Source: a candidate division Zixibacteria bacterium RBG-1 (GTDB lineage Bacteria > Zixibacteria > MSB-5A5 > DSPP01 > RBG-1). From it: a stretch of 64,000 nt of DNA. The notes under the pieces are model-generated. The model saw only the letters and a program-made list of their open reading frames with translations. It was not told the DNA's origin and searched no databases. Made by a program: the position numbers and the translations under genes. The stretch spans positions 804,106 to 868,105 of the forward strand of contig AUYT01000001.1 of assembly GCA_000447245.1 (NCBI GenBank), given 5' to 3'. Shown here one piece after another: positions 3,328-62,205 of this stretch; the stretch's first letter is position 1; the number at the start of each line of letters is the position of its first letter.

Positions 3328-3357
3328 TTAAACTCCTCCTCTTGCTTTCAAATTTTT

Positions 3358-10450: not shown

Positions 10451-10485
10451 AAAGATTCATCTCCTTATAGTTTAAGGTCCAAATT

Positions 10486-23188: not shown

Positions 23189-25690
23189 ATGAGATGCTGT
23201 AATAGCTACAAATTAACCAGGTGGGTGGCTGTAAGTATACTAATCCTCACCTCCAGCTTTGTTCAAGCGAAATTAAAAAGCGACCAATCTAAATCAGTTC
23301 ATCAGTATCCACAAACTGCAGCCGACCCCCTGACTCAAACCAGGGTTCATAAAATCGGGAATATCTGGCTCTCGATTACGAACTTCGGCCAAATTGGAAG
23401 TGGAGGGAAAACCTATAAAGATGTATGCACCAACCAACCAGCCCCATCTTGTCAGTTTCCGGCTGGCTCGGGGATTGAATATCTTTACATAGGGGCTCTC
23501 TGGATAGGGGCAGTGATGAATGATACGGATACTTTGGTTGCGGTGGGGCATGATGGCTGGCAGAATGTGCAGGAATTTGGTCCTACGTCAACCGGGGCCA
23601 TAGTTTCGAGAACTATCCGACCTGATGGTTATCAACAAGATAACTGTTTTGTTCCCTATTCAGATTCGGCAAAGTCGGAACTGGATTATATTGCCGTGTA
23701 TTATGATACGGTAACAAGACAGGATATCCCCAGCATACCGGAAAGAGATAGACCACTAAATTTAGAGATTACCCAAAAAAGCTACAGCTGGAGTTATGAA
23801 TATGCCAATGATTTTGTACTGTTCGATTATTCAATAAAGAATATTGGGACCAATAAATTAACCAGTGTTTATATAGGATTTTATATTGATTTTGATATCT
23901 ATAATCAGAGTTTTGATGGAGGTGGTTATTTTGATGATATTGCCGGCTTTAAGTTTTCAGTGCCTTCACCCTATGATCCCCGTCTGGAAGATACAGTCAG
24001 CATTGCCTGGGGTGCGGATAATGATGGATTATCTGCTGCGCGAGTGGAAGGAGACGTTTTCCTAGACAATTTTAGCCCTACAGGAGTCCTGGGAACGAGA
24101 GTGCTTCGGTCACCAAATCCTGATTTAAAGCATTCTTTTAACTGGTGGGTTTCTAATGGAAATCCTCAGTTGGATTTTGGACCCTGGACCCAAGCCAATC
24201 TTGCCAGGCGCCCAAACTATTTCGTTCCTAATGGCCAATCCGGAACTCCGGAATCTGATCGGTCTAAATATTTCATCATGAGTAATAATGAATTTGATTA
24301 TGACCAATTGTTTGCTGCTTTACCAGAGATTTGGGAGCGACAGGGTTGGGTAAACCAGACCCAAATTTCACCCGACAATCTGGCAGATATTGCCGACGGT
24401 TTTGATAGCCGCTATCTGTTGTCTTTCGGTCCTTTCGACATTGATTCTGGTGAGGTTCTTCCGTTGACCATCGCTTTAGTGGCCGGAGAAGATTTTCATG
24501 TTAAGCCGACTGATTTTAATTCGTATAGTGCGACTGACAGTGCGGCGGTCTTTAATTTTTACAATAAGCTTGATTTTACCTCTTTAGCCGCCAATGCCCA
24601 TTGGGCTGCCTGTGTCTATGACAATCCGGGGTTTGATACTGACGGGGACGGTTATAGAGGGGAATTCCGAATAATTGCTGGTGATACAATCTATAAATGC
24701 GGGGACGGAGTTCCAGATTTTCAAGGTCCGCCTCCCCCACCTGCTCCCCAATTGAAATTTGAAACCTCCTACGGAACCGTAAAAATCAAATGGAATGGCA
24801 AAACGACTGAAAAGTTTTTTGACCAATTTACCAATCGAAGAGATTTTGAGGGTTACCGAATCTATGGCAGCTGGACTGGAATTTTGGGGGATTTTTTTCT
24901 TCTGGATTCATTTGACAAAATGAATTATAAGTTTTTCTACTGGGATAAAGGGAGAAAAAAATGGGTTTACAAGCTTACCGACTTAAGCCTGGACTCTCTT
25001 GTGACTTTGTTTAAGCCAGACGACCCTTGTGAGGGTGCAAGACCTTGCCCCTTGGAGAGCTTATCTTTTTGTTCTGACCCTGACACTTGTGACGACTGGG
25101 ATGTTGCCAGATGGAATTTATATCATCCTTATATCTATCAGGGAACCCAAATAGAAACTTTAAGGATTGCTCCCAATTTAATCATTACCAGGGGGGATTC
25201 GATTTATTTCGACAGGCAGGACTATAACAGAGGTCTATTACCAATCAAGACTTACAAAGACAGTATCTTGAATGGGAGCATTGGTTCAGATGATGACAGA
25301 TATTATGAGTATGAATATGTAATTGATAACTTGAATCCCAATGAGCCCCTTTATTTCGCAGTTACGACTTTTGATTTCGGAGATCCAATAACACGTTTGA
25401 CCCCTTTGGAAACCAGTGTTCTGGCTAATTCTAAATTAGTTTATCCCCGAGTTTGTCTGGCTAAACCGGGGGATGTTAATGAAGATGGGGAGGTTCTGTT
25501 ATCGGACGTGATAGCTATGATTAATATCCGTTTTACATGGTGGCCCCCTCGTCCCATTCATACCTGCAGAATGGACATGAATGGTGATGGGTGGGAACTA
25601 TTTGCAGATATAATCTATCTGGTTAATTACCTATTTAAAGGTGGCCCAAAGCCACAGGTTGTTGAAGAGTGTTGTTTGGTAGGTAATTGA
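23189..25690 (+). CDS. large secreted hypothetical protein with C-terminal dockerin-like tandem repeats
   Basis: 833 aa; signal peptide; C-terminus GDVNEDGEVLLSDVIAMIN...MDMNGDGWELFADIIYLVNYLFKGGPKP...CCLVGN resembles duplicated dockerin Ca-binding loops (DxNxDGxxxxxD). Confidence 0.55.
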   Translation: MRCCNSYKLTRWVAVSILILTSSFVQAKLKSDQSKSVHQYPQTAADPLTQTRVHKIGNIWLSITNFGQIGSGGKTYKDVCTNQPAPSCQFPAGSGIEYLYIGALWIGAVMNDTDTLVAVGHDGWQNVQEFGPTSTGAIVSRTIRPDGYQQDNCFVPYSDSAKSELDYIAVYYDTVTRQDIPSIPERDRPLNLEITQKSYSWSYEYANDFVLFDYSIKNIGTNKLTSVYIGFYIDFDIYNQSFDGGGYFDDIAGFKFSVPSPYDPRLEDTVSIAWGADNDGLSAARVEGDVFLDNFSPTGVLGTRVLRSPNPDLKHSFNWWVSNGNPQLDFGPWTQANLARRPNYFVPNGQSGTPESDRSKYFIMSNNEFDYDQLFAALPEIWERQGWVNQTQISPDNLADIADGFDSRYLLSFGPFDIDSGEVLPLTIALVAGEDFHVKPTDFNSYSATDSAAVFNFYNKLDFTSLAANAHWAACVYDNPGFDTDGDGYRGEFRIIAGDTIYKCGDGVPDFQGPPPPPAPQLKFETSYGTVKIKWNGKTTEKFFDQFTNRRDFEGYRIYGSWTGILGDFFLLDSFDKMNYKFFYWDKGRKKWVYKLTDLSLDSLVTLFKPDDPCEGARPCPLESLSFCSDPDTCDDWDVARWNLYHPYIYQGTQIETLRIAPNLIITRGDSIYFDRQDYNRGLLPIKTYKDSILNGSIGSDDDRYYEYEYVIDNLNPNEPLYFAVTTFDFGDPITRLTPLETSVLANSKLVYPRVCLAKPGDVNEDGEVLLSDVIAMINIRFTWWPPRPIHTCRMDMNGDGWELFADIIYLVNYLFKGGPKPQVVEECCLVGN

Positions 25691-25970: not shown

Positions 25971-26420
25971 ATGAGGATAACTAAACAAGAAGAGTATGGG
26001 TTGCGCTGTATTTTGCAGTTAGCCCAGAATGGGACTGACTCTAAAACTACGGTGGAAATAGCGGCTAAAGAGGGGCTGTCCATGGATTACGTGACCAAAC
26101 TCTTAATCTTGTTAAGAAGACATAAGATTGTGGAGTCGGTCCGGGGTGTTAAAGGCGGTTATCGACTGGCAAGAAATCCCGAGAAAATAACTGTCGGGCA
26201 GGTGATGCGGGCTTTGGGTTGGTCGGTTCTGGATGAATCTTTATGCCGACATTATCCGGGGAAACTGGATAGCTGCATCCATCTGCAGGGCTGTGGTATC
26301 AGACCAATCTGGATGAAAGCGGCTAAGATGATGTATAAGCTTTTGGATTCAACTACCTTGGCAGGATTGTTAAAAGAAGAAGGGGTTATCACGCAAGAAT
26401 TGGAAAGCAAAGAAGCATAG
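25971..26420 (+). CDS. Rrf2 family transcriptional regulator (IscR/SufR-like)
   Basis: 149 aa; N-terminal wHTH typical of Rrf2 (ITKQEEYGLRCILQLA, GVKGGYRLAR); first gene of the suf operon. Confidence 0.8.
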   Translation: MRITKQEEYGLRCILQLAQNGTDSKTTVEIAAKEGLSMDYVTKLLILLRRHKIVESVRGVKGGYRLARNPEKITVGQVMRALGWSVLDESLCRHYPGKLDSCIHLQGCGIRPIWMKAAKMMYKLLDSTTLAGLLKEEGVITQELESKEA

Positions 26421-26539
26421 TATATTTTTTGTTGCAATAGTGGACTTTTTTGTCAGGTTTCGTATAATGAAAGATAAAAAGTTTCAATAGGTTACACTAT
26501 CCCGTAGGGAAAAGTTAAATTAAGAAATAACGAGGAGAA

Positions 26540-27310
26540 ATGAGCAAGGAACCAATTCTAAAAATTGAAGACCTGCATGTGGCAGTTGAAGGAAAAGAGA
26601 TTTTAAAAGGGTTAAACTTAACCATAAACAAAGGGGAAGTGCATGCCTTAATGGGCCCAAATGGCTCCGGGAAATCCACTCTGGCCTATGTGCTAATGGG
26701 GCATCCGAAATATCAGGTTACATCTGGTAGGGTGTGGTATAAAGGAGAAGAGATATTAGCTCTAAAACCGAATGAGAGAGCCAAGAAAGGTTTATTTTTG
26801 GCGTTTCAGTATCCAACACCGATTCCGGGTGTGACGGTAATGAACTTTTTACGGGCGGCTTTGAAAGCAGTCCAAGGGAAAGAGATTCCAGCCAAAGATT
26901 TTTTGAAACTTTTAAAAGAGAAAATGAAATTTTTGGAAATTTCGGATCAGTTTTCTAACCGCTATATCAATGATGGTTTCTCCGGCGGGGAAAAGAAAAG
27001 GCATGAGATTTTGCAGATGGCGATTTTGGAGCCGGAGATGGCGATTTTAGATGAAACTGATTCAGGTTTGGATATTGATGCTTTGAAAACTGTGGCCAAA
27101 GGAGTCAATCGTTTAATCGGACCCAATCTGGGTATTTTATTGATCACTCATTATCAGAGAATGCTGAATTACATTAAACCGGATTTCGTGCATGTCTTAG
27201 TAGATGGAAAAATTGTCCAGTCCGGTGGAGATAAATTAGCTTTGAAATTAGAAGAGTTGGGGTATGATTGGACCGTGGAGAAAACAGAAACACTTTCAGT
27301 TGAGAAATGA
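26540..27310 (+). CDS. sufC: Fe-S cluster assembly ATPase SufC
   Basis: 256 aa; Walker [13 protein letters not shown] signature FSGGEKKR; ends with TGA stop. Confidence 0.9.
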
Positions 27311-27345
27311 TTGTCTGGATATGGAGGAAATTAAATAAGGAGTGT

Positions 27346-27433
27346 TCCCTCTCCTTTAAGGAGAGGGTTAGGGAGAGGTCAGTAGTAAAATATAAAAACT
27401 GACCCCTCCTTTATCCTCCCCTCTAGGGGAGGA
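27346..27433. repeat. palindromic repeat unit (CCCTCTCC..GGAGAGGG family)
   Basis: CCCTCTCCTTTAAGGAGAGGG and TCCTCCCCTCTAGGGGAGGAG hairpins between sufC and sufB. Confidence 0.55.
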
Positions 27434-27467
27434 GATGAAAAATAAAATTAAGAAAGGAAGTAATTTT

Positions 27468-28883
27468 ATGGCAGAAAAAGAATTTACAGATGTTCAGGAC
27501 ATAGGCAAAGATTATAAATACGGATTCAAAGACCCGGAGAAACATGTTTTTAAATCCAAAAGGGGCTTAACTCGTGAAGTTGTAGAGGAAATCTCCTGGA
27601 TGAAAAAAGAACCGGAGTGGATGCGGAATTTCCGCTTAAGAGCGCTGGATATCTTTTTGAAAAAACCGATGCCTACTTGGGGAAGTCCGATTTTAGCCGA
27701 GATTGATTTCGACAACATTTTTTACTACATCAAACCCATGGAAAATCAGGGAAAATCTTGGGATGACGTTCCCGAAGATATCAAAAGGACCTATGAAAAA
27801 TTGGGGATTCCGGAAGCGGAAAGAAAATTTTTGGGCGGGGTGTCAGCTCAGTATGAATCGGAAGTGGTTTATCACAGCTTAAGAAAAGACTTGCAAGCCC
27901 AAGGAGTGATTTTCTTGGATATGGACTCAGGCTTGAGAGAATATCCAGATATTGTCAAAAAATATTTTGCAACTGTAATTCCAGCAGGTGATAACAAATT
28001 TTCGGCTTTAAATTCAGCGGTTTGGTCCGGGGGTTCATTTATCTATGTTCCAAAAGGAGTGGATGTCAAGATTCCTCTGCAGGCCTATTTCAGAATCAAT
28101 GCTGAAAATATGGGGCAGTTTGAGAGAACTTTGATTATTGCGGATGAAGGTTCATCGGTCCATTATATCGAAGGATGCACAGCACCAGTTTACTCCACCG
28201 ATTCATTGCATTCAGCGGTAGTGGAGCTGATTGCACTCAAAGGTTCAAAATTGCGATACACCACTATTCAGAACTGGTCTAAAAATGTTTACAACTTGGT
28301 CACCAAAAGAGGAATTGCTCACGAGGATGCCACGATTCGATGGGTGGATGGAAATTTAGGCAGCAAATTGACTATGAAATATCCTTCGGTTTATATGGTG
28401 GGTAAAGGTGCTTACGGTGAAGTTTTATCCATCGCTTTTGCCGGAAAAGGGCAGCATCAGGATGCCGGGGCTAAGATGGTGCACGTGGCGCCAGGTACTT
28501 CATCTACCATTGTTTCCAAATCTATTTCCAAAGATTCCGGCAGAACTTCTTATCGGGGTCTGGTTAAGGTTTACAAGGGTGCTACCGGGGTGAAATCTAA
28601 TGTCAGATGTGATGCTCTTTTGATGGATGAAGAGTCCCGTTCAGACACTTATCCTACAATGGAGATTGATGAAGAAAATGTCAATGTCGGTCACGAAGCC
28701 ACAGTTTCCAAAGTAGGGGAAGAGCAGCTGTTCTATCTAACTTCTAGAGGAATTTCAGAGCAGGAAGCAACTTTGATGATTGTGAATGGATTCATTGAGC
28801 CTTTTACCAAAGAGTTGCCTCTGGAATATGCGGTGGAGCTGAATCGTCTGATACAATTGGAGATGGAAGGTTCGGTAGGATAG
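27468..28883 (+). CDS. sufB: Fe-S cluster assembly protein SufB
   Basis: ORF 27435..28883; likely start at ATG 27468 (AAGGAAG RBS); strong SufB-family similarity throughout. Confidence 0.85.
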
Positions 28884-28892
28884 TAGAATAAA

Positions 28893-30206
28893 ATGTTTGA
28901 ATTTGAAAAAAATTTCACCAAAGAAAAATTAGAGCTACTTTCCAAATCCAGAAATGAGCCGCAGTGGGTTTTAGAAAAAAGGAAAAAGGCATTTGATGCC
29001 TTTCAAGCTTTAAACTGGCCTACCAAGCAGGAAGAGGACTGGAGAAGGACTGATTTTTCTCCATTGGAGAAGTCAAATTTTGACTTGAACAGATTTTTAA
29101 ACTCCTCTAAATTCATTACCAATGGTTCGGCTTCGCTCACCACAAGCGGTCAACCGACTGCACAGTTCTCAGCGCAACTTTTACAGTCTGATTCAGAGTC
29201 TATTTTCTCCGGTGAAGCGGAGTTTAAGTCATCCAAAATAATTTTTACTGACTTAGATTCTGCTATTAAAAATCATTCTGAAATTCTTTCAAAATATTCT
29301 GATTTAATCAATCCCAATGATGGGAAATTTTTGGCTTTCAATAAAGCTTTCTGGAATAAGGGTATGCTTCTGTATGTTCCAAAAGGAGTGACGGTATCTC
29401 TGCCACTTTATCATCAGCTAAATCTGAAATCTTCCGGCTGGGGAGTTTTTCCTTACACTATAATTATTGCAGAGCCAAATAGTAAAATAATTTTGGTGGA
29501 TGATTACACCAGCCAAGAGCAAAAAGATTGGGCTTTCTCCGATGCTCTGACAGAAATTTATCTGCAGAGAGATGCTCAATTAATTTATGTCAACTCTCAA
29601 AGATGGTCTGGGAACGTTTATCATTTGTTGAGACAAAAAGCCAAATTAGAAGCTAATGCCCAGCTGATTACTTTGACAGTCAATTTAGGCAGTCAAAAAT
29701 CCCGTTCGGAAATTGAGACAGAATTGGCAGGTTCCGGCGCTTCTGCCTACATTTTCGGTTTGACAATTGGCAACGGGCAACAAACTTTTGAGCAACATAC
29801 TCTGCAGGATCACAAAGCACCCCATACCACCAGTGATTTGTTATTCAAAACAGCTTTGCTTGATTCGGCTTATGCGGTTTATTCCGGCCTAATCAAAGTG
29901 GAAAAACAAGCCCAAAAAACTGATGCCTATCAAGCCAATCGGAATTTACTTCTCTCGGACAAAGCCAAAGCCGATACTTTGCCGAAGTTGGAAATTTTGG
30001 CCAATGATGTCCGCTGTACGCACGGTGCCACAGTCGGTCCGATTGACCCGGAGCAGTTTTTTTATTTAATTTCCCGAGGAATTGAAGACAAGGTTGCCAA
30101 ACAACTTTTGATCGAAGGGTTTTTTGATGAAGTTCTGGGTCGCATAAAAGAAAATGGATTTAAAGATAAGATTAAAGAATTTTTGGAGGAAAAGATTGTT
30201 GAATAG
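28893..30206 (+). CDS. sufD: Fe-S cluster assembly protein SufD
   Basis: 437 aa; SufB/SufD-family beta-helix region; position between sufB and sufS. Confidence 0.8.
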   Translation: MFEFEKNFTKEKLELLSKSRNEPQWVLEKRKKAFDAFQALNWPTKQEEDWRRTDFSPLEKSNFDLNRFLNSSKFITNGSASLTTSGQPTAQFSAQLLQSDSESIFSGEAEFKSSKIIFTDLDSAIKNHSEILSKYSDLINPNDGKFLAFNKAFWNKGMLLYVPKGVTVSLPLYHQLNLKSSGWGVFPYTIIIAEPNSKIILVDDYTSQEQKDWAFSDALTEIYLQRDAQLIYVNSQRWSGNVYHLLRQKAKLEANAQLITLTVNLGSQKSRSEIETELAGSGASAYIFGLTIGNGQQTFEQHTLQDHKAPHTTSDLLFKTALLDSAYAVYSGLIKVEKQAQKTDAYQANRNLLLSDKAKADTLPKLEILANDVRCTHGATVGPIDPEQFFYLISRGIEDKVAKQLLIEGFFDEVLGRIKENGFKDKIKEFLEEKIVE

Positions 30207-30207
30207 T

Positions 30208-30300
30208 GTCATCCTGAATGAAAGTGAAGGATCTGATTTTTTCAAAAGAGAGATTCTTCGCTACAGTTTACCCTGAGCCTGTCGAAGGGCTCAGAATGAC
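30208..30300. mobile_element. MITE-like element (GTCATCCTGAA...CTCAGAATGAC)
   Basis: Begins 2 nt after the sufD stop and ends 11 nt before the Rieske gene start; same family as 20631-20720. Confidence 0.55.
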
Positions 30301-30311
30301 AAATAAAAATT

Positions 30312-30620
30312 ATGGAATACAAAGTGGCTGAAATTGGAGAAGTTACTCACGGAGGGATGAAAATCGCGAAGGCTGGGGAGAAAAATTTGATGTTATGCAA
30401 CGTGGCTGGGGAATATTATTGTGTGGATAATGTTTGCACCCATGATGGAGGAACTCTAAGTGAAGGTGAATTAATCGATGATGAAATTGAATGTCCCCGG
30501 CATGGGGCTCATTTTAATGTTAAAACTGGAGCCGTGATGACTCTACCTGCAATTTTCCCAATTGCTACGTATTCGGTGAAAGTGGAAGGGAAAGATATAA
30601 AAGTCATTATTAAAGAGTAA
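30312..30620 (+). CDS. Rieske [2Fe-2S] ferredoxin-like protein
   Basis: 102 aa; CTHDGGTLSEG (CxH) and CPRHGAHF (CxxH) Rieske ligands. Confidence 0.8.
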   Translation: MEYKVAEIGEVTHGGMKIAKAGEKNLMLCNVAGEYYCVDNVCTHDGGTLSEGELIDDEIECPRHGAHFNVKTGAVMTLPAIFPIATYSVKVEGKDIKVIIKE

Positions 30621-30624
30621 AAGT

Positions 30625-31884
30625 ATGCTAAACGTTCAAAAAATCAGAGAAGATTTTCCAATATTAAATCAAAAAATTCACGACAAGCCCTTGGCTTATC
30701 TGGACAATGGCTCCACTTCCCAGAAGCCTAAAGTGGTAATTGATGCCATTACTAATTATTACAACTGGTATAATTCCAATATCCATCGGGGGATTCATAC
30801 TTTGAGTGAGAAAGCCACCGAAGCTTACGAAAATGTTAGAAAAATCGTGGCTGATTTTATAAAAGCTCCTGACCCAGAAGAAATAATTTTTACCCGCAAT
30901 GCTACCGAAGCTGTAAATTTGGTAGCTTATGCCTGGGGGAGAAAAAATATTTCTACCGGTGATGAGATTCTTTTAACTGAAATGGAACATCACTCTAATT
31001 TAATCCCCTGGCAGATTTTGGCTAAGGAGAAGAAAGCGGTCTTGCGGTTTATTCCTATCACTCAAAATTTCACTCTGGACTTAGATAAAATTGAAGATTT
31101 GATAACTTCTAAAACCAAGCTGGTAGCTGTGACCCAGATGTCCAATGTTTTGGGAACTATAAATCCGGTTAAAAAAATAGCTGGGTTGGCTCATAAGGCC
31201 AAGGCCTTATTCTTGATAGATGGAGCCCAGGGTGTGCCTCATTCTGGTATCGATGTAGCCAATGTCAACTGTGACTTTTTAGCATTCACTGCTCACAAAA
31301 TGTTAGGACCAACTGGCGTGGGAGTTCTATACGGTAAGAAAAAATTGTTAGAAGAGATGGACCCCTTTATTGCTGGGGGAAGTATGATTTTAGAGGTTTG
31401 GCAAGATCGAGCTACTTGGAACAAAGTCCCTTACAAATATGAAGCCGGAACTCCCAATATTGCAGACGTCATTGCCTTTGGTGAAGCGATAAAATATTTG
31501 CAAAATATCGGCATGGAAAATGTCAGAAACCATGAGAAAGAGTTGACCGCTTACGCTTTGAAAAAACTTTGTGAAACTGAAGACTTAACTATCTATGGTC
31601 CTAAAAATCCGGAACTTCAAGGAGGAATAATCTCTTTTAATTTCTCCGCCAAAGGCGGATCCGACTCTGTCGGAATAGATATACATCCACATGATGTTGG
31701 TACTATCGTGGATCAAGAAGGAGTAGCAATAAGAGCTGGGCATCACTGCTGTCAGCCTTTGATGAGAAAATTAGGGATTCCGGGAACTGCGCGAGCCAGC
31801 TTTTATATTTACAATACTAAAGAAGAAATTGACCAGTTGACTTTTGCTCTGGGAAAAGTCAAAGAGGTGTTTGCACGTTTATAG
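30625..31884 (+). CDS. sufS: cysteine desulfurase SufS
   Basis: 419 aa; PLP-lysine region TAHKMLGPTGVG and active-site Cys region GHHCCQPLMRK. Confidence 0.9.
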   Translation: MLNVQKIREDFPILNQKIHDKPLAYLDNGSTSQKPKVVIDAITNYYNWYNSNIHRGIHTLSEKATEAYENVRKIVADFIKAPDPEEIIFTRNATEAVNLVAYAWGRKNISTGDEILLTEMEHHSNLIPWQILAKEKKAVLRFIPITQNFTLDLDKIEDLITSKTKLVAVTQMSNVLGTINPVKKIAGLAHKAKALFLIDGAQGVPHSGIDVANVNCDFLAFTAHKMLGPTGVGVLYGKKKLLEEMDPFIAGGSMILEVWQDRATWNKVPYKYEAGTPNIADVIAFGEAIKYLQNIGMENVRNHEKELTAYALKKLCETEDLTIYGPKNPELQGGIISFNFSAKGGSDSVGIDIHPHDVGTIVDQEGVAIRAGHHCCQPLMRKLGIPGTARASFYIYNTKEEIDQLTFALGKVKEVFARL

Positions 31885-31989
31885 CACGAATAAATAGTCG
31901 GGTGCAGGGACCCGACTTCTACCCGGCTTTGGGTAGCACTGGGTCCCTGAACCCAGTGCTAAGCTCATATAAAGCGAGTGAAATAAATT

Positions 31990-32454
31990 ATGTCAGCCAT
32001 TGAAGATTTATATCGAGAAATAATTTTGGACCATTATTCTTCTCCCCGTAATCGAGGAGAATTACCGGCTCCAGCTTTAAAAATTGAAGGGGCAAATCCG
32101 CTTTGTGGGGATGAGCTGGTTTTATACATTGAAGAAAAAGATGGCCAAATCAAGCAGGTAAAAATAAATACCAAAGGTTGCTCTATCTCACAGGCCTCGG
32201 CTTCTTTGATGACCGAAGCTATCGTTGGGAAAAAAATCGAAGAAATTCAGAAAATTATTGAGAATTTTAAAGATATGATGCTAAAAGATGGTTCATTTAC
32301 TCCTACAGTTGATTTGGGGGATTTGGAGGTTCTGGAAGGGGTCAAAAAATATCCGGTCAGGATTAAATGTGCTTTGTTGGCTTGGAATACTTTGATAGAG
32401 GGGCTGAAAGCATTACAGAATCACAAAAAGCCAGAGCCGGTGGTGATGGAGTGA
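31990..32454 (+). CDS. sufU: SufU/IscU-like Fe-S scaffold / sulfur acceptor
   Basis: 154 aa; conserved Cys in NPLCGDE and KGCSISQASAS typical of SufU. Confidence 0.8.
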   Translation: MSAIEDLYREIILDHYSSPRNRGELPAPALKIEGANPLCGDELVLYIEEKDGQIKQVKINTKGCSISQASASLMTEAIVGKKIEEIQKIIENFKDMMLKDGSFTPTVDLGDLEVLEGVKKYPVRIKCALLAWNTLIEGLKALQNHKKPEPVVME

Positions 32455-32469
32455 ATATTAAAAGATATT

Positions 32470-32518
32470 TACCTCTCCCCATCCCTCCCCTAAAAGGGGA
32501 GGGTAAGGGAGGGGTTAG
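32470..32518. repeat. palindromic repeat unit (CCCTCCCCTAAAAGGGGAGGG family)
   Basis: TCCCTCCCCTAAAAGGGGAGGGTAAGGGAGGGGTTAGT between sufU and the DUF59 gene. Confidence 0.5.
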
Positions 32519-32534
32519 TTAAGAAGGTGAAATT

Positions 32535-32876
32535 ATGACGGAAAACCTGAATAATCAAAATCAACAGTCGAATAATCTGGACGCGGAGACTTTGAAAGAG
32601 CAATTGAAACAGATTGTGGACCCGGAGATTAATATCAATATCGTGGATCTAGGTTTGGTTTACAAAGTTGAAAATAAAGACGGGGATATTTTAATCGATA
32701 TGACTCTGACCTCACCGGTCTGCCCTTTTGGGGAAGTGGTGAAATCAGAAACTATCAGAATTTTAAAAGAGCTTCCCGGTGTCAAAGAAGTTCATATAAA
32801 TATCGTCTGGGACCCTCCTTGGAATCCCTGGGAGATGGCATCCGAGGAAGCAAAATTACAATTAGGTTTGTTATGA
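32535..32876 (+). CDS. DUF59/MIP18-family Fe-S assembly protein (SufT-like)
   Basis: 113 aa; motif IVDLGLVY...TLTSPVCPFG characteristic of the DUF59 family. Confidence 0.75.
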   Translation: MTENLNNQNQQSNNLDAETLKEQLKQIVDPEININIVDLGLVYKVENKDGDILIDMTLTSPVCPFGEVVKSETIRILKELPGVKEVHINIVWDPPWNPWEMASEEAKLQLGLL

Positions 32877-32895
32877 ATTTAAAGAGAGGAGTGAT

Positions 32896-33255
32896 ATGAT
32901 AACTTTAACCAAAATTGCAGCAGAAGAATTGAAAAGAGTCATCAAAGAAAATAATTTGCCGGAGAGTTCGGCTTTAAGAGTAGAAGTGAGAGAGGATGGA
33001 TGTTCTTCGCATGGAACTCCTTATTCTTACTACATTAAACTGGAAGAAAGCCCAGCCACTTCTCAGGATAATGTCTTTGAATCAGAAGGGGTAAAAGTTT
33101 TGGTTGCCCAGGCCAGCTTGCAATATATTCAGGGTCTTAGTCTGGATTTTGTGGAGTCGATCCACGGACGGGGATTTGCCTTTACCAATCCAAATGCCAA
33201 GCGCTCCTGCGGGTGCGGGCACTCATTTAGCGTAGACGAAGAAAAAGAGAATTAA
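32896..33255 (+). CDS. A-type Fe-S cluster carrier (HesB/IscA/SufA family)
   Basis: 119 aa; C-terminal SCGCGHSF signature and upstream Cys (DGCSSHG). Confidence 0.85.
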   Translation: MITLTKIAAEELKRVIKENNLPESSALRVEVREDGCSSHGTPYSYYIKLEESPATSQDNVFESEGVKVLVAQASLQYIQGLSLDFVESIHGRGFAFTNPNAKRSCGCGHSFSVDEEKEN

Positions 33256-38026: not shown

Positions 38027-39985
38027 TCAGGCACACCCCAGAAGAGGGGCTGTGCCGCTTTTGAAAACATAATTCACCAGATAAACAATATCTGCTAAAT
38101 TCACCGAACAATTCGCATTGGGATCTCCCAAAAACAGGGGGTTCGGTGCTGGTCCCCCTTTGAAAACAAAGTTCACCAGCCAAATAATGTCCGTCAAATT
38201 AATTCCCCCATCTGAATTGGCATCCCCGGCTAGGTAAGGAAAGGTCTTCAAACTATCCAAGGGAGACAAAATCCAATAGTTGGGGTCAAAGGTAATGGAA
38301 GTGGGATCACCGGTTACCAGGAAGAAAAAAGTCTGGTCTCTTTGGTTGTTTTGCAATGTGACGATTGTATCACCGGAGGTGGTGGAAACCTTGAATTCTA
38401 GCGGCATGGTATAAACTGAGGGGGTGGTCTGTTTCTGGCTGATGTTGAGATGAACCCTGGAGTTTCCTCCCACAGGGGTCTCAGCCCAGCTCCAGTTGTA
38501 TCTGGGAAAATTGGGGCTATAGACCCACTCATTGAAAAACCAATCCAAATCCTGTCCGGAGTAATTTTCCATTGAGGTTTGAAATTGCTGAGTATTGGCA
38601 GTGCTGTATTTATAGGTCTGTCCGTAATCCGCCATCCCGTTAAAGAACAAACTGTCGCCCAGTATGTATCTCAACATATGCAGAACCCAGGAGCCCTTGT
38701 CGTAGACCGCAGTTGAAAACCAGTAGTTGGAAGGTGGATTGTAAATCGGATAATGGACTGAGCCGTTGGGTAGCTGGTAAGAAGATTTAACGGCGTTTTC
38801 TTGCCCCGCTAACTGTGAATTTTTGGCTGATAGACCGTATTCATATTCCATCCACAAGACCTCGCAGTAGCTGGCAAACCCTTCGTTGAGCCAGATGTTG
38901 GGAAAGTCATTGCAGGTGACCATATCCCCCCACCACTGGTGGCCCAGCTCATGGGCATTCACCCATTCGTAAACAGCATTGCCGGGCATGGGAAATCCCC
39001 AGGAGGTGTTGGTCTGATGCTCCATAGCACCACCCAATTCTGCCTGCACGTTGGAGTATTTTTCACCCATAAAAGGATAAGGGACCCAGATAGAGGAGAA
39101 AAACTCAATCATCTCCGGAGTTTTTCGAAAATCCACCACTGCCGCAGCCGAATCCTCGTGATAAACCCAATAATGAACCGGCAGGGTGTCGTTGTTTACC
39201 ACCGCAAAAGAATCAATTCGGGCAAAATCACAGACCGTCAAAGAGATTAAATAAGTCACTATCGGATAATCTTCTTTCCAGTGATATGTCACTGTGGTAT
39301 CTGGATTGTTGGTAACTGAGAGAAGAGTTCCATTAGCTACCGCATAATTTCCTGCTGGAGCAGTGCAGATAATTTCTGAATAAGCTTTGTCGTTGGGAAA
39401 ATCAAAACAGGGAAACCAATAACGAGAGCCGTAAGGTTCGGTGAAGGAATAATAAATGGGAGTGCCGTAGGCATTGGCATCAAAATAAAATCCGCCACTC
39501 GGGTTTCCATGATAAAAAACTTCCACATTAAAAGAATCCCCGGGATTGTAGGGAACATCCAGGTCCACGGTCAATTTGGTGCTGGTTCTGGAAAAGGTGG
39601 TGCTGGAAAAATTGACCTTGCAGGAATCCACCGTCATACCCACAAAGTCTAAGACCAGGCTGGCCAGAAGGGAAATTTCCGACTTGGCGTGAATGGTCAC
39701 ATGCCCCCGGAATCTGTTGGTCAGGTCCGTGGGAACCAACCTGACATCTAAAATATATTTGGTAACGTCATAATCATGGGAGCTGTCGGCCGGCAGGGCT
39801 GGGGGAAAGGATTTTCCGAAGTGTAAAGATTTCCCCTCCTCCACCAGATTAGACTCCGGATCGCCTGCCGGGGAACCTGCTTGAGATTTGGGGACATAGG
39901 CAAATGCGGTAACAGTCAAGACCAGCAGGCAAATCAAAAAAATTAGACTTATAGCTTTGTTAGAGAATCTTTTTCCACCAGACAC
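38027..39985 (-). CDS. M1 family aminopeptidase (aminopeptidase N-like) with C-terminal dockerin-like module
   Basis: 652 aa; signal peptide; gluzincin motif HELGHQWWG...NEGFASY; C-terminus GDANSDGGINLTDIIWLVNFVFKGG...GDPNANCSVNLADIVYLVNYVFKSG...LLGCA. Confidence 0.8.
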   Translation of the reverse strand: MSGGKRFSNKAISLIFLICLLVLTVTAFAYVPKSQAGSPAGDPESNLVEEGKSLHFGKSFPPALPADSSHDYDVTKYILDVRLVPTDLTNRFRGHVTIHAKSEISLLASLVLDFVGMTVDSCKVNFSSTTFSRTSTKLTVDLDVPYNPGDSFNVEVFYHGNPSGGFYFDANAYGTPIYYSFTEPYGSRYWFPCFDFPNDKAYSEIICTAPAGNYAVANGTLLSVTNNPDTTVTYHWKEDYPIVTYLISLTVCDFARIDSFAVVNNDTLPVHYWVYHEDSAAAVVDFRKTPEMIEFFSSIWVPYPFMGEKYSNVQAELGGAMEHQTNTSWGFPMPGNAVYEWVNAHELGHQWWGDMVTCNDFPNIWLNEGFASYCEVLWMEYEYGLSAKNSQLAGQENAVKSSYQLPNGSVHYPIYNPPSNYWFSTAVYDKGSWVLHMLRYILGDSLFFNGMADYGQTYKYSTANTQQFQTSMENYSGQDLDWFFNEWVYSPNFPRYNWSWAETPVGGNSRVHLNISQKQTTPSVYTMPLEFKVSTTSGDTIVTLQNNQRDQTFFFLVTGDPTSITFDPNYWILSPLDSLKTFPYLAGDANSDGGINLTDIIWLVNFVFKGGPAPNPLFLGDPNANCSVNLADIVYLVNYVFKSGTAPLLGCA

Positions 39986-40327
39986 ACAGGCCTCCTTAAA
40001 GTCTAAGTAAGACTCATGCAGGTTTATTGAAAAGCACGCTCATGACCGTTATAAATATAAGCTAATTTATCCTTTTTGTAAAGGGAGAATTTTGGGTGAA
40101 ATTATGAATTAAAATGCAAGAAAATGCTGATATTTGCTCAAAAAACTTGCTTTTAAAAATCCATGGGGCATCTTTCATCAAGTTATTTTTGAATCGGGTC
40201 AATTTCCAGAGCCGAAGATACGTAGAAAATTAAACAAGAGTTTCGACAGAACCTATCATAAATGGTTCGACTCGTTCCCCCGATGAATCGGGGTCAGAGT
40301 AAACGAAGCTCACTAAAAGGAGGAGCA

Positions 40328-41176
40328 ATGAGAAGTTCGGTGAAGTGGCTGACGGTAATATTGGGCGTTTCTGCTTTTGGTGCGGCGACCGCCTCGGAGA
40401 AGATTTCCTGGAAAAAGATTGACGAGGCCTTAAGCTTAGCCAAAAGCCAGAATAAGAAATTATTAATCGATTTTTATTCCCCCACCTGAGGGGCCTGCAT
40501 AAAAATGGACAAAGAAACTTACTCGGATGACCGGGTGGTGGTTCTGTCCAAAGATTTCATCTTCGTCAAAGTCAACACCAAAGAAGATACCTTAACTAAA
40601 AAGCAATATCAAGTATTCGCCACTCCGACTGCGCTTATGGCCAATGCGGACGGGCAGGAGATAGACCGGGTGGTAGGTTTTCATCCCACCGAACAGTTTT
40701 TACCCATCATCAAAGATTACCAGAAAGGGAAAAATACTTTAGGTGATCTGGAGAAGAAAGCCGGCAAAAATCCCAAAGACGTAAAACTTTTGTACACTTT
40801 GGGGGACAAATATCAATGGCGAGGCGGTAATGAAAAAGCTGTGGAGATGTTTAACAAAGTGGTAGAGTTAGACCCGGAAAATAAATCCGGCAAAGCGGAC
40901 TCTTCGGCTTTTAATCTGGCTTACCTGAAATATCGCCAGAAAGATTATCAGAGTGCCATTGCTGATTTTGAAATGTTCAAGACCGAGTATACCAATCCCA
41001 ATCTGGTGGGTGATGCCCAGATTTACATCGCGGCCTCTTACGAAAAGTCAGATAACAAAGCCGAAGCTCTGAAACAGTACCAGAAATATCTGGAGATGTA
41101 TCCGGAGGGTGAAAACGCCGATTACGCCAAGGAGCAGATTGAAAAACTGACCCAGAAAGCGGAAAAGGCAGAATAA
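40328..41176 (+). CDS. exported thioredoxin-fold (DUF255/Thioredoxin_7-like) + TPR protein with in-frame TGA at the first Cys of the CxxC motif; candidate selenoprotein
   Basis: ATG 40328 preceded by AAAAGGAGG; signal peptide; ORFs 40262..40489 and 40505..41176 are in one frame, separated only by TGA 40487-40489; joined reading ...KKLLIDFYSPT[TGA]GACIKMDKETYSDDRVVVLSKDFIFVKV... aligns with the LLIDFYADWCGxCKxMDKE thioredoxin-like pattern. Confidence 0.5.
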
Positions 41177-41289
41177 GTTTAATTAGATTGCAATATAAAA
41201 ATTCCTGTCGGTGTCTTGTGGTTACACCATAAACTGTCAGGAATTTTTTATAATAAAAATCATTTTATGCCCCGCGTAGGGGTGGTTCA

Positions 41290-52213: not shown

Positions 52214-52284
52214 TGGGGGATCGTCTAACGGCAGGACGAATGGCTCTGGACCATTTAATCGGGGTTCGAATCCCTGTCCCCCAG
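52214..52284 (+). tRNA. tRNA-Gln (anticodon CTG)
   Basis: Hand-folded: acceptor TGGGGGA/TCCCCCA, D-stem GTCT/GGAC, anticodon stem AATGG/CCATT with loop CTCTGGA, T-arm CGGGG-TTCGAAT-CCCTG; TTGACA -35-like hexamer about 25 nt upstream. Confidence 0.75.
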
Positions 52285-53172: not shown

Positions 53173-54720
53173 ATGAGAAACAAAGTTGTGTTAGCAGTGG
53201 TATTTTTATTATGGATGGGACTTGCTTGGGCAGATACTCCCCAGCTGATTAATTTTCAGGGTCGACTGACTGATTCTTTGGGAAACCCTGTGAGTAATGG
53301 TGCCTATAGTTTACGCTTCAGAATCTACGATGATTCTTTGGCTGGTAATATTTTGTGGGAAGAGACCGACCCGGTTCAGGTAAAATCTGGACTTTTTACG
53401 GTGCTTCTGGGTTCAACTAATTCAATTCCGGATAGCGCTTTTTATTCTGCTAATCGCTGGTTAGGAATAAAAATCGGTACAAACCCTGAAATTACACCCA
53501 GACAGAGATTGGCTTCCGTGGGTTACAGCTATGTTTCTTCCCAATGGAACTCGGCTGACTCGAATCTCTATCGGATAAAGGGAAAAGTCGGCATTGGAAC
53601 TTCCACTCCCACCTTCGCAAAGCTGGAGGTCGTCGCCTCCAGTGGCATCGGCGTTTTCGCTTCGGGCAGCCCTGGCGTTTACGGCACCAGCTCATCAGGC
53701 ACTGGTGTTTTTGGCGAGGGTTCCTTGTACGGCCTTTACGGCAACAGCAACGGCACTGGAGTTTTCGGCACGGGCCCCCAGTACGGCGTTCACGGTGATG
53801 GGTACAACGGCACGGGCGTTTACGGCGAGGGCGACACGGCTGGCGTTAGCGGCCAAAGTATATCAGGCACTGGCGTTCGCGCCTTATCATATAACGGCCC
53901 CGGTGTTGTCGCTTCGGGTAGCACGTACGGCGTTTCCGGCACAAGCACCGGAGGCACTGGCGTTAGAGGCATTAGCGGCAGCGGCTATGGCGTTTATGCC
54001 TCGGGCGGCCCGAACGGCGTTGTCGCTTATGCAACTAATTCTGGCGGCTCGGCTGTTTACGGCTCGGGCGTCACGTATGGTGTTTACGGTGTGGCAAGCG
54101 CCAACAACGGCTCCGGTGTTTATGGTTCAAACGGCGGGAATCCCTCGACATATGCCGGCTACTTCGTCGGAACCGTTTACGTGGCCGGTGACTTTTATGC
54201 TGTAGGAACAACCAAAAGCGCCGCCGTGAAAGTCAACAACGGCGAATATCGGGTGCTTTATGCGCAGGAATCCCCCGAAAACTGGTTTGAGGATTTCGGC
54301 ACGGCCCAGTTGGTGAATGGCCAAGCCACTGTGAATATCGATCCCCTCTATGCCCAAACGGTAAATACGGCAGTAACCTATTACGTCTTCTTGACTCCGG
54401 AAGGGGATTGTCAGGGACTTTTCGTTACCGGCAAGACCCCGGCCTGTTTTGAGGTGCGGGAACTGCAAAACGGGAAATCCAACCTGTCGGTGAGTTATCG
54501 AATCGTGGCCAAAAGGAAGGGCTATGAAAACGTCCGCCTGCCCAAACTGCCCGGCCTAACTCCGGAAGAGGTTCAAGCCAAAGACGTCAAGCTCCGGGCC
54601 GAGATGGCCAAAGAAAACGCTGGGCACCTAGAGGAACAAGCCCGAATGGAGCAGGAACGTAAGAAAATGGAAGAAGAGCGCACCAAAATGGAGCAAGAAT
54701 GTTTGCTTCCCAAGCGGTAA
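53173..54720 (+). CDS. secreted glycine-rich repeat protein with GC-rich repetitive core and C-terminal coiled-coil
   Basis: 515 aa; signal peptide; about 20 tandem G-x-GV(Y/F)G-like repeats encoded by locally GC-rich DNA (53600-54200); C-terminal globular region and charged tail EEQARMEQERKKMEEERTKMEQE. Confidence 0.5.
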   Translation: MRNKVVLAVVFLLWMGLAWADTPQLINFQGRLTDSLGNPVSNGAYSLRFRIYDDSLAGNILWEETDPVQVKSGLFTVLLGSTNSIPDSAFYSANRWLGIKIGTNPEITPRQRLASVGYSYVSSQWNSADSNLYRIKGKVGIGTSTPTFAKLEVVASSGIGVFASGSPGVYGTSSSGTGVFGEGSLYGLYGNSNGTGVFGTGPQYGVHGDGYNGTGVYGEGDTAGVSGQSISGTGVRALSYNGPGVVASGSTYGVSGTSTGGTGVRGISGSGYGVYASGGPNGVVAYATNSGGSAVYGSGVTYGVYGVASANNGSGVYGSNGGNPSTYAGYFVGTVYVAGDFYAVGTTKSAAVKVNNGEYRVLYAQESPENWFEDFGTAQLVNGQATVNIDPLYAQTVNTAVTYYVFLTPEGDCQGLFVTGKTPACFEVRELQNGKSNLSVSYRIVAKRKGYENVRLPKLPGLTPEEVQAKDVKLRAEMAKENAGHLEEQARMEQERKKMEEERTKMEQECLLPKR

Positions 54721-55987: not shown

Positions 55988-57040
55988 ATGGTGGTCTCTC
56001 TGATGTCGGTGGTTTTATTGTTGGGTATTAGCTGGCTGGTTTCAGGTTGTGGCGGTGAAGGGCAAACCGAATCTTTGAAAGAGGCAGTTTATGGCTCCCC
56101 GGAAGCTCAAATTTCAATGGAGAAACCGACTACTTCTGAACTGTATTCGGGAGCGGCTTTGAGCATTGCGCCGGAAGTAAACCCAGTACCCAATGCCAAA
56201 GTCCATGAGGTCCGTTTGGACGTGACCCATAGCGAAATTCAGGTAACCGAAGGGGTGAAATTCGTAGCCTGGACTTTTGGTGGAACTTTACCAGGTCCGG
56301 TATTGCACGTTCGTCAAGGAGACCGAGTTAGATTTACCATGACTAATCGGTCTGACCAAACCGTATCCTTTTCACCGCCCACTCCACATTCCATCGATTT
56401 CCATGCCGCCATGGTCAATCCGGCTGACAAATATAGAGAAGTCATTCCCGGAGCCACCATCAAATTTGAATGGGTAGCCAATTATCCCGGTGTATTTATG
56501 TATCACTGCGGCTCTCCCGCAATTTTACAACATATGATTTATGGCATGATTGGGATGACCATTGTGGAGCCGAAAAATGGTTACCCCACCAAGGTAGACC
56601 GGGAATTTGCTTTAGTACAAAGCGAGTTATACTTAACTAAAATGAAAAGCGGTATGTATCTGGTGGATATGGAAGCCGCCAAACAAAAGAAAGCCACCTA
56701 TGTAACTTTTAATGGAATTCCCAAACAGTATGTCGACAAGCCCTTACAAGCTAAACCCGGTGAAAGAGTCAGAATATATATACTAAATGCGGGACCAAAC
56801 GGAACTTCCAGTTTCCATGTGGTGGGTACTTTATTCGATAAAGCCTGGTTTGATGGAAATCCACAAAATGAGCAAAGAGGGTTACAGACTGTAATTTTAG
56901 GTTCCAGCAACGGCGCTATTGTTGAATTTGTTATCCCGGAAGCGGGAACTTATACTTTTGTGGACCATGAATTTGCGGATGTAGAGTTAGGAGCAGTCGG
57001 ACAAATAGTGGCTAAAAGTGAGGCGATAGCCAGTAAGTAA
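55988..57040 (+). CDS. nirK: copper-containing nitrite reductase (NO-forming)
   Basis: 350 aa; lipoprotein-type leader (LVSGC); type-1/type-2 Cu ligand contexts HSIDFHAA and YHCGSPAILQHMIYGM (Cys-x8-His-x4-Met); C-terminal HVVG and FVDHEF regions parallel known NirK. Confidence 0.85.
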   Translation: MVVSLMSVVLLLGISWLVSGCGGEGQTESLKEAVYGSPEAQISMEKPTTSELYSGAALSIAPEVNPVPNAKVHEVRLDVTHSEIQVTEGVKFVAWTFGGTLPGPVLHVRQGDRVRFTMTNRSDQTVSFSPPTPHSIDFHAAMVNPADKYREVIPGATIKFEWVANYPGVFMYHCGSPAILQHMIYGMIGMTIVEPKNGYPTKVDREFALVQSELYLTKMKSGMYLVDMEAAKQKKATYVTFNGIPKQYVDKPLQAKPGERVRIYILNAGPNGTSSFHVVGTLFDKAWFDGNPQNEQRGLQTVILGSSNGAIVEFVIPEAGTYTFVDHEFADVELGAVGQIVAKSEAIASK

Positions 57041-57054
57041 AACAGGTTAAACCG

Positions 57055-57612
57055 ATGCGCAAATTTAGTTCCATATTTATATTAATGATCTTACCATGTC
57101 TGGTGTGGGGAAATACCTCCCTAAACGCTCCTCCTAAACAGGTTAGGAGTTTTTCCCCAGGAACCAAGGGCACAGTACTGATATTTGTTTCCAGTCTGTG
57201 CCCTTGTACTGATGCCCACAGGATTATGGTGGAAAATTTAATGACTAGAATGCCAGCCAGTGGATTCAAATTTTATGCGGTGTTCTCCAATAAAGGGGAA
57301 ACTACCGAACTGATAGAGTATTTCTATCGGACCATTGGCTGGCAGATGCCTTATATTTTGGATAGTAGCGGAACTTTGCAAAAAAAATATAAAGCCACCC
57401 ATACCCCTCAAGCCTTTGTGATAAGTCCTCAAAATAAAGTGCTTTATAGAGGACCAATCGACGACAGTAACTTAAATCAGGGACGAGTAGATAATCCTTA
57501 TTTAAAAAATGCTTTAGAGGATCTTTTGGCAGGAAGAGCTGTTAAAGCTTCTGAGGTGGCTGGGACCGGCTGCTGGATTGTTAGAAGTATTTCTTCAAAA
57601 GAACTGAAATAG
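57055..57612 (+). CDS. thioredoxin-fold protein (SCO/TlpA-like), exported
   Basis: 185 aa; signal peptide; Cys motif VSSLCPCTDAH in a thioredoxin-like context. Confidence 0.45.
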   Translation: MRKFSSIFILMILPCLVWGNTSLNAPPKQVRSFSPGTKGTVLIFVSSLCPCTDAHRIMVENLMTRMPASGFKFYAVFSNKGETTELIEYFYRTIGWQMPYILDSSGTLQKKYKATHTPQAFVISPQNKVLYRGPIDDSNLNQGRVDNPYLKNALEDLLAGRAVKASEVAGTGCWIVRSISSKELK

Positions 57613-57733
57613 AACCCGAGATGAATATAAAGCAGATTAAAACCTTAAAGATTGTGAAAAAAATCACAAAAAAAGGTAAAAAAACCTAGGTCAATTTAGA
57701 AAGTAAAAACTGTTGATAAAGAGAGGCTTGAAA

Positions 57734-58246
57734 ATGAAAAACTCAATGAAAACAATAGCTGGTTTAGCCATTGTTCTGGGATTCTTGATATTATCCGGAT
57801 GTAGTAAAAATACAAAAGTAATCTCCGGTCCCTCAAATCCTTTTGTTCTTTCAGTTCAACCAACTAATGGAGCCGTTAATGTCCCAATTTCATCTTCAGT
57901 GCAGATAATTTTCGCCTCTCCTATGGATACTCTTTCAGTAGCTCAAAACTTCTGCTTGATAGGAGGAGAGATGATGTATCAAGTGATGGATTCTTTGGAG
58001 CATGCTATGATGGATTATTCAGAGATGATGGAGTGGATGCATTCAGAGTCTTTTACTGGACAGTTTCAATGGAATTCAAAAAGAGATTCTTGTCTATTTT
58101 TACCAGATTCCAGCCTGATTCATCATACCGAATACATGATTTATATGGGAAGGAATATGGAGAGTAGGCATCGTGATATGATGATGGAACACCGAGAGAT
58201 GATGGGAGAAGATTTTATAACTCATTTTACAACCGAGGATAACTAA
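57734..58246 (+). CDS. Met/His-rich periplasmic lipoprotein (putative Cu(I)-binding)
   Basis: ORF 57713..58246; likely ATG 57734 (AGAGAGG RBS); lipobox LSGC; Met-rich stretches MMYQVMDSLEHAMMDYSEMMEWMH and HRDMMMEHREMMGED. Confidence 0.5.
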   Translation: MKNSMKTIAGLAIVLGFLILSGCSKNTKVISGPSNPFVLSVQPTNGAVNVPISSSVQIIFASPMDTLSVAQNFCLIGGEMMYQVMDSLEHAMMDYSEMMEWMHSESFTGQFQWNSKRDSCLFLPDSSLIHHTEYMIYMGRNMESRHRDMMMEHREMMGEDFITHFTTEDN

Positions 58247-58404
58247 CTCTTAGAAGAAGGAGGAAAAATGAAAAGAGTGTTAAAACTTTTATAGATTTAG
58301 AATTAACTGTCAAGAGTAATATTTTTTTCTTGACAAATTAATTCTGCTGGATGATATTTAGAGAAGTTAAAAAAAATTGAAACAAGGACGGGGAAGGAGG
58401 ACGA

Positions 58405-59319: not shown

Positions 59320-59327
59320 GAGGAAAA

Positions 59328-62174: not shown

Positions 62175-62205
62175 AAACCAGAACCCAAATTTTTTAGGAG
62201 CAAAA

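Follow-up and report, generated by a model that had tools for sequence, protein, structure and literature searches.

Within a 64,000-nucleotide (nt) stretch of the genome of candidate division Zixibacteria bacterium RBG-1 (contig AUYT01000001.1, positions 804,106 to 868,105; hereafter the window, whose numbering is used throughout), two adjacent open reading frames (ORFs) probably form one gene for an exported selenoprotein. We place the probability at roughly 0.9 that 40328-41176 is a single monocistronic gene, currently misannotated, that encodes a thioredoxin-fold domain followed by tetratricopeptide repeats (TPR) and has UGA as its codon 54. This UGA would be decoded as selenocysteine (Sec) by SelB carrying Sec-tRNA(Sec), and SelB would be recruited by a hairpin within the coding sequence (CDS) of the mRNA, at 40506-40550, whose apical loop is 36 nt past the UGA. 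A first-pass annotation of the same DNA had proposed a candidate selenoprotein here, and the conserved TGA, the Cys-containing homologues and a hairpin resembling a selenocysteine insertion sequence (SECIS) support that proposal. Direct support comes from the conservation of the UGA, the alignment of Sec with Cys, the constraint on RNA structure, the domain architecture and the fact that TGA serves as an ordinary stop for other genes of the window.

The interrupted reading frame and its predicted product

ORFs 40262..40489 and 40505..41176 lie on the forward strand in a common frame, and TGA 40487-40489 is the sole interruption between them, in agreement with the earlier reading. Translated through this codon the active-site region becomes ...KKLLIDFYSPT-[TGA]-GACIKMDKETY..., and the whole N-terminal part from ATG 40328 reads MRSSVKWLTVILGVSAFGAATA-SEK...KKLLIDFYSPT-[TGA]-GACIKMDKETYSDDRVVVLS.... 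ATG 40328 is the likely start of the gene, being the most plausible candidate, and a GGAGG/GGGGG-type motif is also found 5' of the start codon in homologues.

The homologues fall into at least three clades, referred to here as A (the clade of the window gene), B and C. Export had been suggested in the first-pass annotation, as had similarity to thioredoxins on both sides of the TGA and TPR repeats after the thioredoxin fold. The last two suggestions hold, and a signal peptide is predicted. The predicted signal peptide is a feature retained in all homologues, with a lipoprotein-like Cys instead in clades B and C. When Cys was substituted for the TGA, the Pfam family Thioredoxin_2 (PF13098) matched residues 38-127 with an E-value of 2.5e-13, and the matches to Thioredoxin_7, Thioredoxin and Thioredox_DsbH/DUF255 likewise extended across residue 54, with the flanks on either side conserved in homologues. 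Several Pfam TPR families and YfiO matched residues ~130-280.

The closest PDB sequences for the thioredoxin domain are the C-terminal (gamma) domains of DsbD (4ip1 and 2fwe), together with 2kuc. Structure was modelled with AlphaFold (AF2) for a Cys homologue, P0019, standing in for the window protein. The model (predicted local distance difference test score, pLDDT, 91.7; predicted template modelling score, pTM, 0.83) has a canonical thioredoxin fold packed on an all-helical TPR domain, and its CxxC motif follows strand 1, where helix 1 has its N-terminus. Taken alone, the thioredoxin domain of P0019 superposes on DsbD-gamma with a template modelling (TM) score of 0.73-0.76 and ~30% identity.

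A periplasmic location is expected from the predicted signal peptide, or from the lipoprotein-like Cys that clades B and C have. Once the signal peptide is removed, the DsbD-gamma-like domain would present a U-G-A-C redox centre in the periplasm, working as a selenenylsulfide/selenol-thiol couple. The most likely activity is that of a periplasmic thiol:disulfide reductase or isomerase with Sec as the attacking nucleophile, while the TPR domain fused to it presumably binds a partner, client or substrate protein. None of the analyses run pointed to a specific TPR client. What we infer from these features is Sec insertion, export, the activity itself, the direction in which electrons flow and the existence of a client for the TPR domain.

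Conservation of the TGA and of the downstream hairpin

Clade A DNA was collected in two ways. Exact-protein look-ups and one GTDB genome match gave 10 distinct homologues, and a metagenome scan with the pattern TGA-N6-TGY-N6 followed by degenerate MDKETY codons gave 5 more distinct sequences. TGA stands at the identical codon in all 15 (47-90% amino acid (aa) identity, from independent metagenomes and metagenome-assembled genomes (MAGs)), and neither TAA nor TAG was seen at codon 54 among them. Both flanks are kept, the signal peptide and ..LLIDFYSPT upstream and xxCxKMDKETYxDxRVVVLS downstream. The sole GTDB representative genome retrieved (contig CAYNPJ010000002.1) is labelled 'uncultured Ignavibacteria bacterium'; it carries the clade A gene with an identical lower stem of the SECIS-like hairpin, and either the family reaches past Zixibacteria or this bin is mislabelled.

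TGA is also found at this codon in the two other clades. Clade C, a high-GC lineage with 31% identity that is represented by contigs L012, L013 and L027, reads DFYTDW-TGA-RWCKALEES. In clade B the Zixibacteria MAG GCA_049694315.1 (L028), which belongs to a second Zixibacteria paralogue group, reads EFWSAG-TGA-KWCKRLEDSTF. Since every homologue with readable DNA has its TGA at this one codon, the feature is far beyond chance.

The first-pass annotation had placed the TGA on the first Cys of a CxxC motif, and an alignment check bears this out. Full-length homologues read LIDFYTxWCGxCKKMDKETY at the active site, their first Cys standing in the TGA column; in the more distant homologues P0019-22 and P0025 (277-428 aa), which are full length, LIDFYTxWCxxCK is read with the first Cys in that column. 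Both forms occur in clade B, where clustering at 90% identity gives 29 clusters of full-length Cys forms with CxWCxRLEDST and 77 further clusters of short forms that begin just past the CxxC site; the TGA was verified in DNA for 1 of these 77. The two forms even occupy the same locus, gcvH-gcvPA-DUF2007-[gene]-gcvPB, which holds the Cys form P0019 in contig L014 and the TGA form in L028. Judged by this gene order, a functional tie of the clade B gene to the glycine cleavage system or to lipoyl redox chemistry is possible. One clade B protein from ENA, P0188, has a Trp at the Sec position (ADFWSEGWQWCKRLEDST), most simply explained as a TGA read under another code table or as a natural TGA-to-TGG variant.

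The wider thioredoxin-TPR family is large. An exhaustive HMMER search of 1.84 billion representative sequences, with the downstream 223 aa as query, returned many full-length CxxC forms of ~280 aa, commonly with CxWC. Among the 150 top hits, some 45 start directly past the CxxC motif, and these short forms are probably putative Sec forms as well.

A stem-loop after the TGA had been noted at the outset. It exists and is SECIS-like, although it starts 16-17 nt past the TGA and not 15 nt as first reported. RNAalifold predicts for clade A a single hairpin at alignment columns 20-64, corresponding to 40506-40550 in the window. It is made up of a 6-bp lower stem (UGGACA/UGUCCA), a 2-bp middle stem and an 8-bp upper stem that contains a bulged U, and it ends in an apical loop of 6 nt that starts with G; the first loop position (column 40) is G in 14 of the 15 distinct sequences. 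The bacterial SECIS (bSECIS) model has four criteria: an apical loop of 3-9 nt, an upper stem of 4-16 bp, a minimum free energy (MFE) of -7.5 kcal/mol or lower, and a G within the first two loop positions with 16-37 nt from UGA to loop (PMC13188914). The window hairpin lies within all four, with its 6-nt loop, 8-bp upper stem, MFE of -18.3 kcal/mol and G at a spacing of 36 nt.

Comparison of the sequences argues that this structure is under selection as RNA. Across the 15 distinct sequences standard pairs fill 99.2% of the cells, and shifting the partners by 1-3 columns lowers this share to 35-47%. Covariation is seen at pair 37:48 (CG, UA, UG and AU) and at pair 39:46 (GC and UA), and at 37:48 it joins a Ser/Pro/Thr66 replacement to a synonymous change in Arg69. 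Synonymous sites are frozen inside the stem, where 9 of 11 invariant degenerate codons use one codon only, versus 0 of 46 outside it (10 sequences; Fisher p = 6e-9). The same is seen with the metagenome pattern GAY AAR GAR ACN, which permits 16 synonymous spellings of D-K-E-T: GAC AAA GAA ACT was the only one present in the 9 true hits. Moreover, RVVVLS is conserved in the Sec forms only and the Cys forms differ at that point, as expected if the RNA and not the protein imposes the constraint. In clades B and C the downstream sequence is unrelated, and both have a hairpin of their own whose apical loop is GGA; the loop lies 20 nt past the UGA in clade B and 17 nt past it in clade C. The clade C hairpin is identical in L012 and L027, which suggests a constraint at the RNA level here too.

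Alternative readings and relation to known proteins

Several points weigh against a selenoprotein. The 36-nt spacing is close to the top of the accepted 16-37 nt range, and the covarying pairs are 2 of 16, the remainder being invariant and hence uninformative on pairing. The stability of the hairpins is ordinary for their composition (z = -1.0 for the window hairpin, -0.8 and +0.2 for clades B and C); because these thermodynamic z-scores are unremarkable, the case for a structure rests on covariation and synonymous-site conservation. Neither the 64-kb window (ARAGORN, Rfam, and Pfam on 50 ORFs) nor 230 kb of related loci (ARAGORN on 23 loci, and tblastn with E. coli SelD and SelA queries) yielded selA, selB, selD or tRNA-Sec. 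Missing Sec genes are expected in so small a sample and are not evidence of absence. The use of Sec by Zixibacteria is unreported in the literature searched, and the RBG-1 genome paper and BSepDB are likewise silent on it. Finally, the identification as a selenoprotein comes from comparing sequences and RNA.

If the UGA were read through without Sec, the hairpin would stimulate insertion of near-cognate Trp, Cys or Arg and the product would be a WxxC, CxxC or RxxC protein. RNA structures 3' of stop codons are able to stimulate such read-through, and the lack of Sec machinery in the sequence searched and the W of P0188 both fit it. We nevertheless find this explanation highly unlikely. The position is the catalytic Cys in all full-length homologues, Sec for Cys in a thioredoxin-fold UxxC is the commonest selenoprotein pattern (PMC13188914; PMC2398784), and bSECIS-like hairpins with a G-first apical loop are present in three clades of otherwise unrelated sequence. 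The W of P0188 has the simpler origins given above.

There is still less room for two genuine separate genes, namely a 53-residue secreted peptide that ends at the TGA and a cytoplasmic 223-residue TPR protein that begins at ATG 40505. Such a split would sever strand 1 of the thioredoxin fold from helix 1, precisely at the catalytic Cys. It is the outcome of all gene callers, and an ATG or TTG is found 15 nt past the TGA in clades A and B; however, clade C is without a start codon near the TGA, and there the callers begin at least 30 codons later. A conserved Shine-Dalgarno sequence was not found 5' of ATG 40505, and the Met encoded there (Met60) is the conserved M/L of a CxxCxx[ML]D motif that is found in the Cys forms too. 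The stop is invariably TGA though synonymous sites elsewhere are saturated, and the NCBIfam scores of the TPR part for YbgF and BamD reach about half of their cutoffs. Separate genes in the homologues had been named as an outcome that would speak against a selenoprotein. The homologues contradict it, as the upstream piece always ends in TGA and directly abuts the rest of the thioredoxin fold.

The two remaining explanations can be dismissed briefly. TGC and TGT are one substitution from TGA, but a pseudogene or an assembly or sequencing error at a Cys codon is next to impossible given the identical TGA in ~20 independent assemblies (NCBI, JGI, ENA and Logan) of three clades with purifying selection on both flanks, and the same assemblies exclude that resequencing would remove the TGA. 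A change of genetic code that would make TGA a sense codon throughout the genome (code 4 or 25) has the in-frame TGA itself and nothing further in its favour. It is equally negligible, since this is the only convincing in-frame TGA in 64 kb and TGA is the stop of 10 of the 45 other Pfam-supported genes, whose domain matches are complete (for example MtrB 635/635, PvlArgDC 161/161 and Ham1 186/186). The stops of these 45 genes are 25 TAA, 10 TAG and 10 TGA, and among the last is sufC (26540..27310), the gene for which the first-pass annotation had noted an ordinary TGA stop.

The preferred reading, a Sec-containing thioredoxin-TPR protein, differs from the present annotation, in which an RBG-1 protein with 100% identity to the downstream 223-aa ORF is named 'tol-pal system protein YbgF'. 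A further 18 homologues (49-90% identity) are all 186-228 aa long, each called from a Met past the TGA. The family has been given the names 'YbgF', 'BamD' and 'TolA-binding protein' because the ORFs are truncated at the UGA. A selenoprotein name was found on none of the ~140 relatives retrieved from any source. The TPR domains of YbgF/CpoB and BamD do resemble the TPR part of the window protein, which alone matches YbgF TIGR02795 (46.3 bits vs. a cutoff of 90.1) and BamD TIGR03302 (49.5 vs. 81.4). The coiled-coil N-domain of YbgF is absent, however, and an N-terminal thioredoxin domain is present. The Sec-form database entries thus all lack the signal peptide and the active site and are named after an unrelated TPR protein, a systematic misannotation that the single-gene reading corrects.

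None of the three clades reaches the cutoff of any NCBIfam model; the C-terminal thioredoxin domains of TsoB and DsbD score highest, with 52-60 bits against cutoffs of 805 and 330. DsbD-gamma, a periplasmic reductase-type fold, is the best match to the thioredoxin domain in both structure and sequence, but the hit to DsbD NF001419 (52 bits vs. 330) covers profile positions 462-573, the gamma domain, only. The window protein is without the membrane and alpha domains of DsbD, would have Sec for Cys and has the TPR domain in addition. DsbH, likewise of the periplasmic reductase-type thioredoxin fold, is a weaker match (TM 0.69, 20% identity).

The order of an N-terminal thioredoxin fold and a C-terminal TPR domain is shared with CnoX/YbbN (PDB 3qou and 3qdn), and E. 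coli YbbN/CnoX 3qou was the top Foldseek hit of the whole-chain P0019 model. The domain arrangement is nevertheless another one (TM 0.31, root-mean-square deviation 22.7 Å, 17% identity), and CnoX/YbbN is cytoplasmic and without Sec, whereas the window protein has a predicted signal peptide and a DsbD-gamma-type thioredoxin domain. The Trx7/PDZ (seleno)protein NF041199 is similar in that an exported Thioredoxin_7-type Sec domain is fused to a protein-binding domain. It combines CxxU with PDZ, however, where the window protein would combine UxxC with TPR, and the score is 20.2 bits against a cutoff of 300.

Among known selenoproteins the closest parallel is the 'Thiol:disulfide interchange protein' or 'Trx-like 2' family (Kryukov & Gladyshev 2004), described as a PF13098 protein with UxxC (PMC13188914) and defined in the Global Ocean Sampling (GOS) paper by cd02953, the DsbD-gamma domain, with UxxC (PMC2398784). 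Like the window protein it has a DsbD-gamma-type domain (PF13098 being the best Pfam hit here), Sec for the first Cys of CxxC, a SECIS directly downstream within the ORF and many Cys homologues. The window protein adds a C-terminal TPR region of ~150 residues and a signal peptide, whereas for the family (representative WP_011366075.1) the catalogue gives the thioredoxin domain only and no TPR domain. At the domain level the window protein would belong to a selenoprotein class known since 2004. The first-pass annotation had not recognised the thioredoxin-TPR fusion as a selenoprotein, and this stands for the fusion, which has no NCBIfam model and is not among the 119 prokaryotic selenoprotein families of the 2026 catalogue (PMC13188914); it does not stand for the UxxC domain type, which is an old selenoprotein class. 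Mechanistically this is a textbook case, in which a thioredoxin-fold UxxC carries Sec and a SECIS follows closely, and what is described here is a new family or architecture inside the very common thioredoxin-fold UxxC class of bacterial selenoproteins. The combination of a DsbD-gamma-like UxxC domain with TPR is new to both NCBIfam and the catalogue.

With much less assurance, at little better than even odds, we propose an uncatalogued, phylum-wide family of exported Sec thioredoxin-TPR proteins ('periplasmic chaperedoxin-like'). It would have at least three clades with their own SECIS designs, repeated Sec/Cys switching, one clade in a glycine-cleavage cluster and more than 100 clusters that are truncated and misnamed, and it would be the first evidence of Sec decoding in Zixibacteria. 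The window gene by itself implies the use of selenocysteine by Zixibacteria, the reference genome RBG-1 among them. Orthologues that have Sec in one genome and Cys in another at identical loci, together with three independent SECIS solutions on one scaffold, would also make a convenient natural system for studying Sec/Cys exchange and the constraint that a SECIS places on coding sequence.

Flanking signals and other features of the window

The features of the gene and of its relatives are collected in Table 1. The predicted terminator has a long loop; it was missed by a consensus terminator scan and recovered by folding. With these flanking signals the gene at 40328-41176 looks monocistronic. 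Its neighbours in clade A are conserved (M1 peptidase, (CbiX), RtcA and NadE), which would suggest synteny and not an operon.

Table 1. Coordinates and basis of the features described for the thioredoxin-TPR gene and its relatives; positions are those of the window unless a contig is named.
Feature	Position	Strand	Basis
Promoter-like site TAAACA-17-TATCAT, weak evidence	40231..40259	+	Consensus scan, 9/12 matches; alone not significant
Shine-Dalgarno GGAGG, 4 nt 5' of ATG 40328	40319..40323	+	Sequence reading
Single CDS (proposed), 282 codons + stop: signal peptide, thioredoxin domain with U54-G-A-C57, TPR domain	40328..41176	+	Translation, Pfam, alignment to Cys homologues
Predicted Sec-type signal peptide (MRSSVKWLTVILGVSAFGAATA, putative cleavage before SEK)	40328..40393	+	Basic n-region, hydrophobic core and AxA motif, read by eye
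DsbD-gamma-like thioredoxin-fold domain, residues ~28-135	40409..40732	+	PF13098, PF13899, PF00085, PF03190; PDB and fold matches
In-frame TGA, proposed selenocysteine codon U54 of UxxC	40487..40489	+	Kept in clades B and C as well as in all 15 distinct sequences of clade A; Cys column in full-length homologues
SECIS-like hairpin	40506..40550	+	MFE -18.3 kcal/mol, RNAalifold consensus, covariation, frozen synonymous sites
TPR domain, ~3 TPR units + capping helices, YbgF C-terminal/BamD-like	40733..41173	+	Pfam TPR_1, TPR_2, TPR_6, TPR_12, YfiO
Predicted intrinsic terminator, long hairpin then UUUUUU	41194..41252	+	MFE -25 kcal/mol, z = -5.8; 0/200 shuffles fold equally well
Clade C hairpin after UGA (GGUGUAAGGCUCU-GGA-AGAGUCUACCUACACC)	L012 396-440, L027 819-863		Same in two contigs differing at nearby synonymous sites
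Clade B thioredoxin-TPR gene in glycine-cleavage cluster	L014 3001-3834, L028 3806-4663		Gene order biotin carboxylase, gcvH, gcvPA, DUF2007, [Trx-TPR], gcvPB

Other in-frame TGA candidates in the window were rejected, because each of them overlaps a real gene that is read in another frame or from the opposite strand. A complete SUF Fe-S operon is found at 25971-33255, with genes for an Rrf2 regulator, sufC, sufB, sufD, a Rieske protein, sufS, and NifU-like, FeS_assembly_P and HesB/SufA-like proteins; its HesB-like gene is without an in-frame TGA. Genes for a multicopper oxidase, a thioredoxin-like protein, a multihaem cytochrome (58405-59319), an MtrB/PioB porin (59328-61538) and a monohaem cytochrome c are clustered at 55988-62631. 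Some bacteria have selenoprotein families of the MtrB/PioB type and of multihaem ExtKL proteins; the ORFs of this cluster are uninterrupted. The cluster corresponds to the Mtr-type iron-respiration cluster of RBG-1 (Castelle et al. 2013).

ARAGORN identified an 85-nt tRNA-Leu(CAG) at 17416-17500, and a scan at the Rfam gathering threshold gives only a tRNA-Gln at 52214-52284. Two long ORFs of 833 and 515 aa, at 23189-25690 and 53173-54720, are without a Pfam match at E <= 1e-6. Peptidase genes are plentiful in the window, with two tandem pairs of the M16 (insulinase) type at 1855-4899 and 9077-11811, an M24 gene at 6301-7551 and the M1 gene at 38027-39985. At 171-1788 a deoxyhypusine synthase-like gene adjoins a gene for a pyruvoyl-dependent arginine decarboxylase, and the two make a polyamine-related pair.

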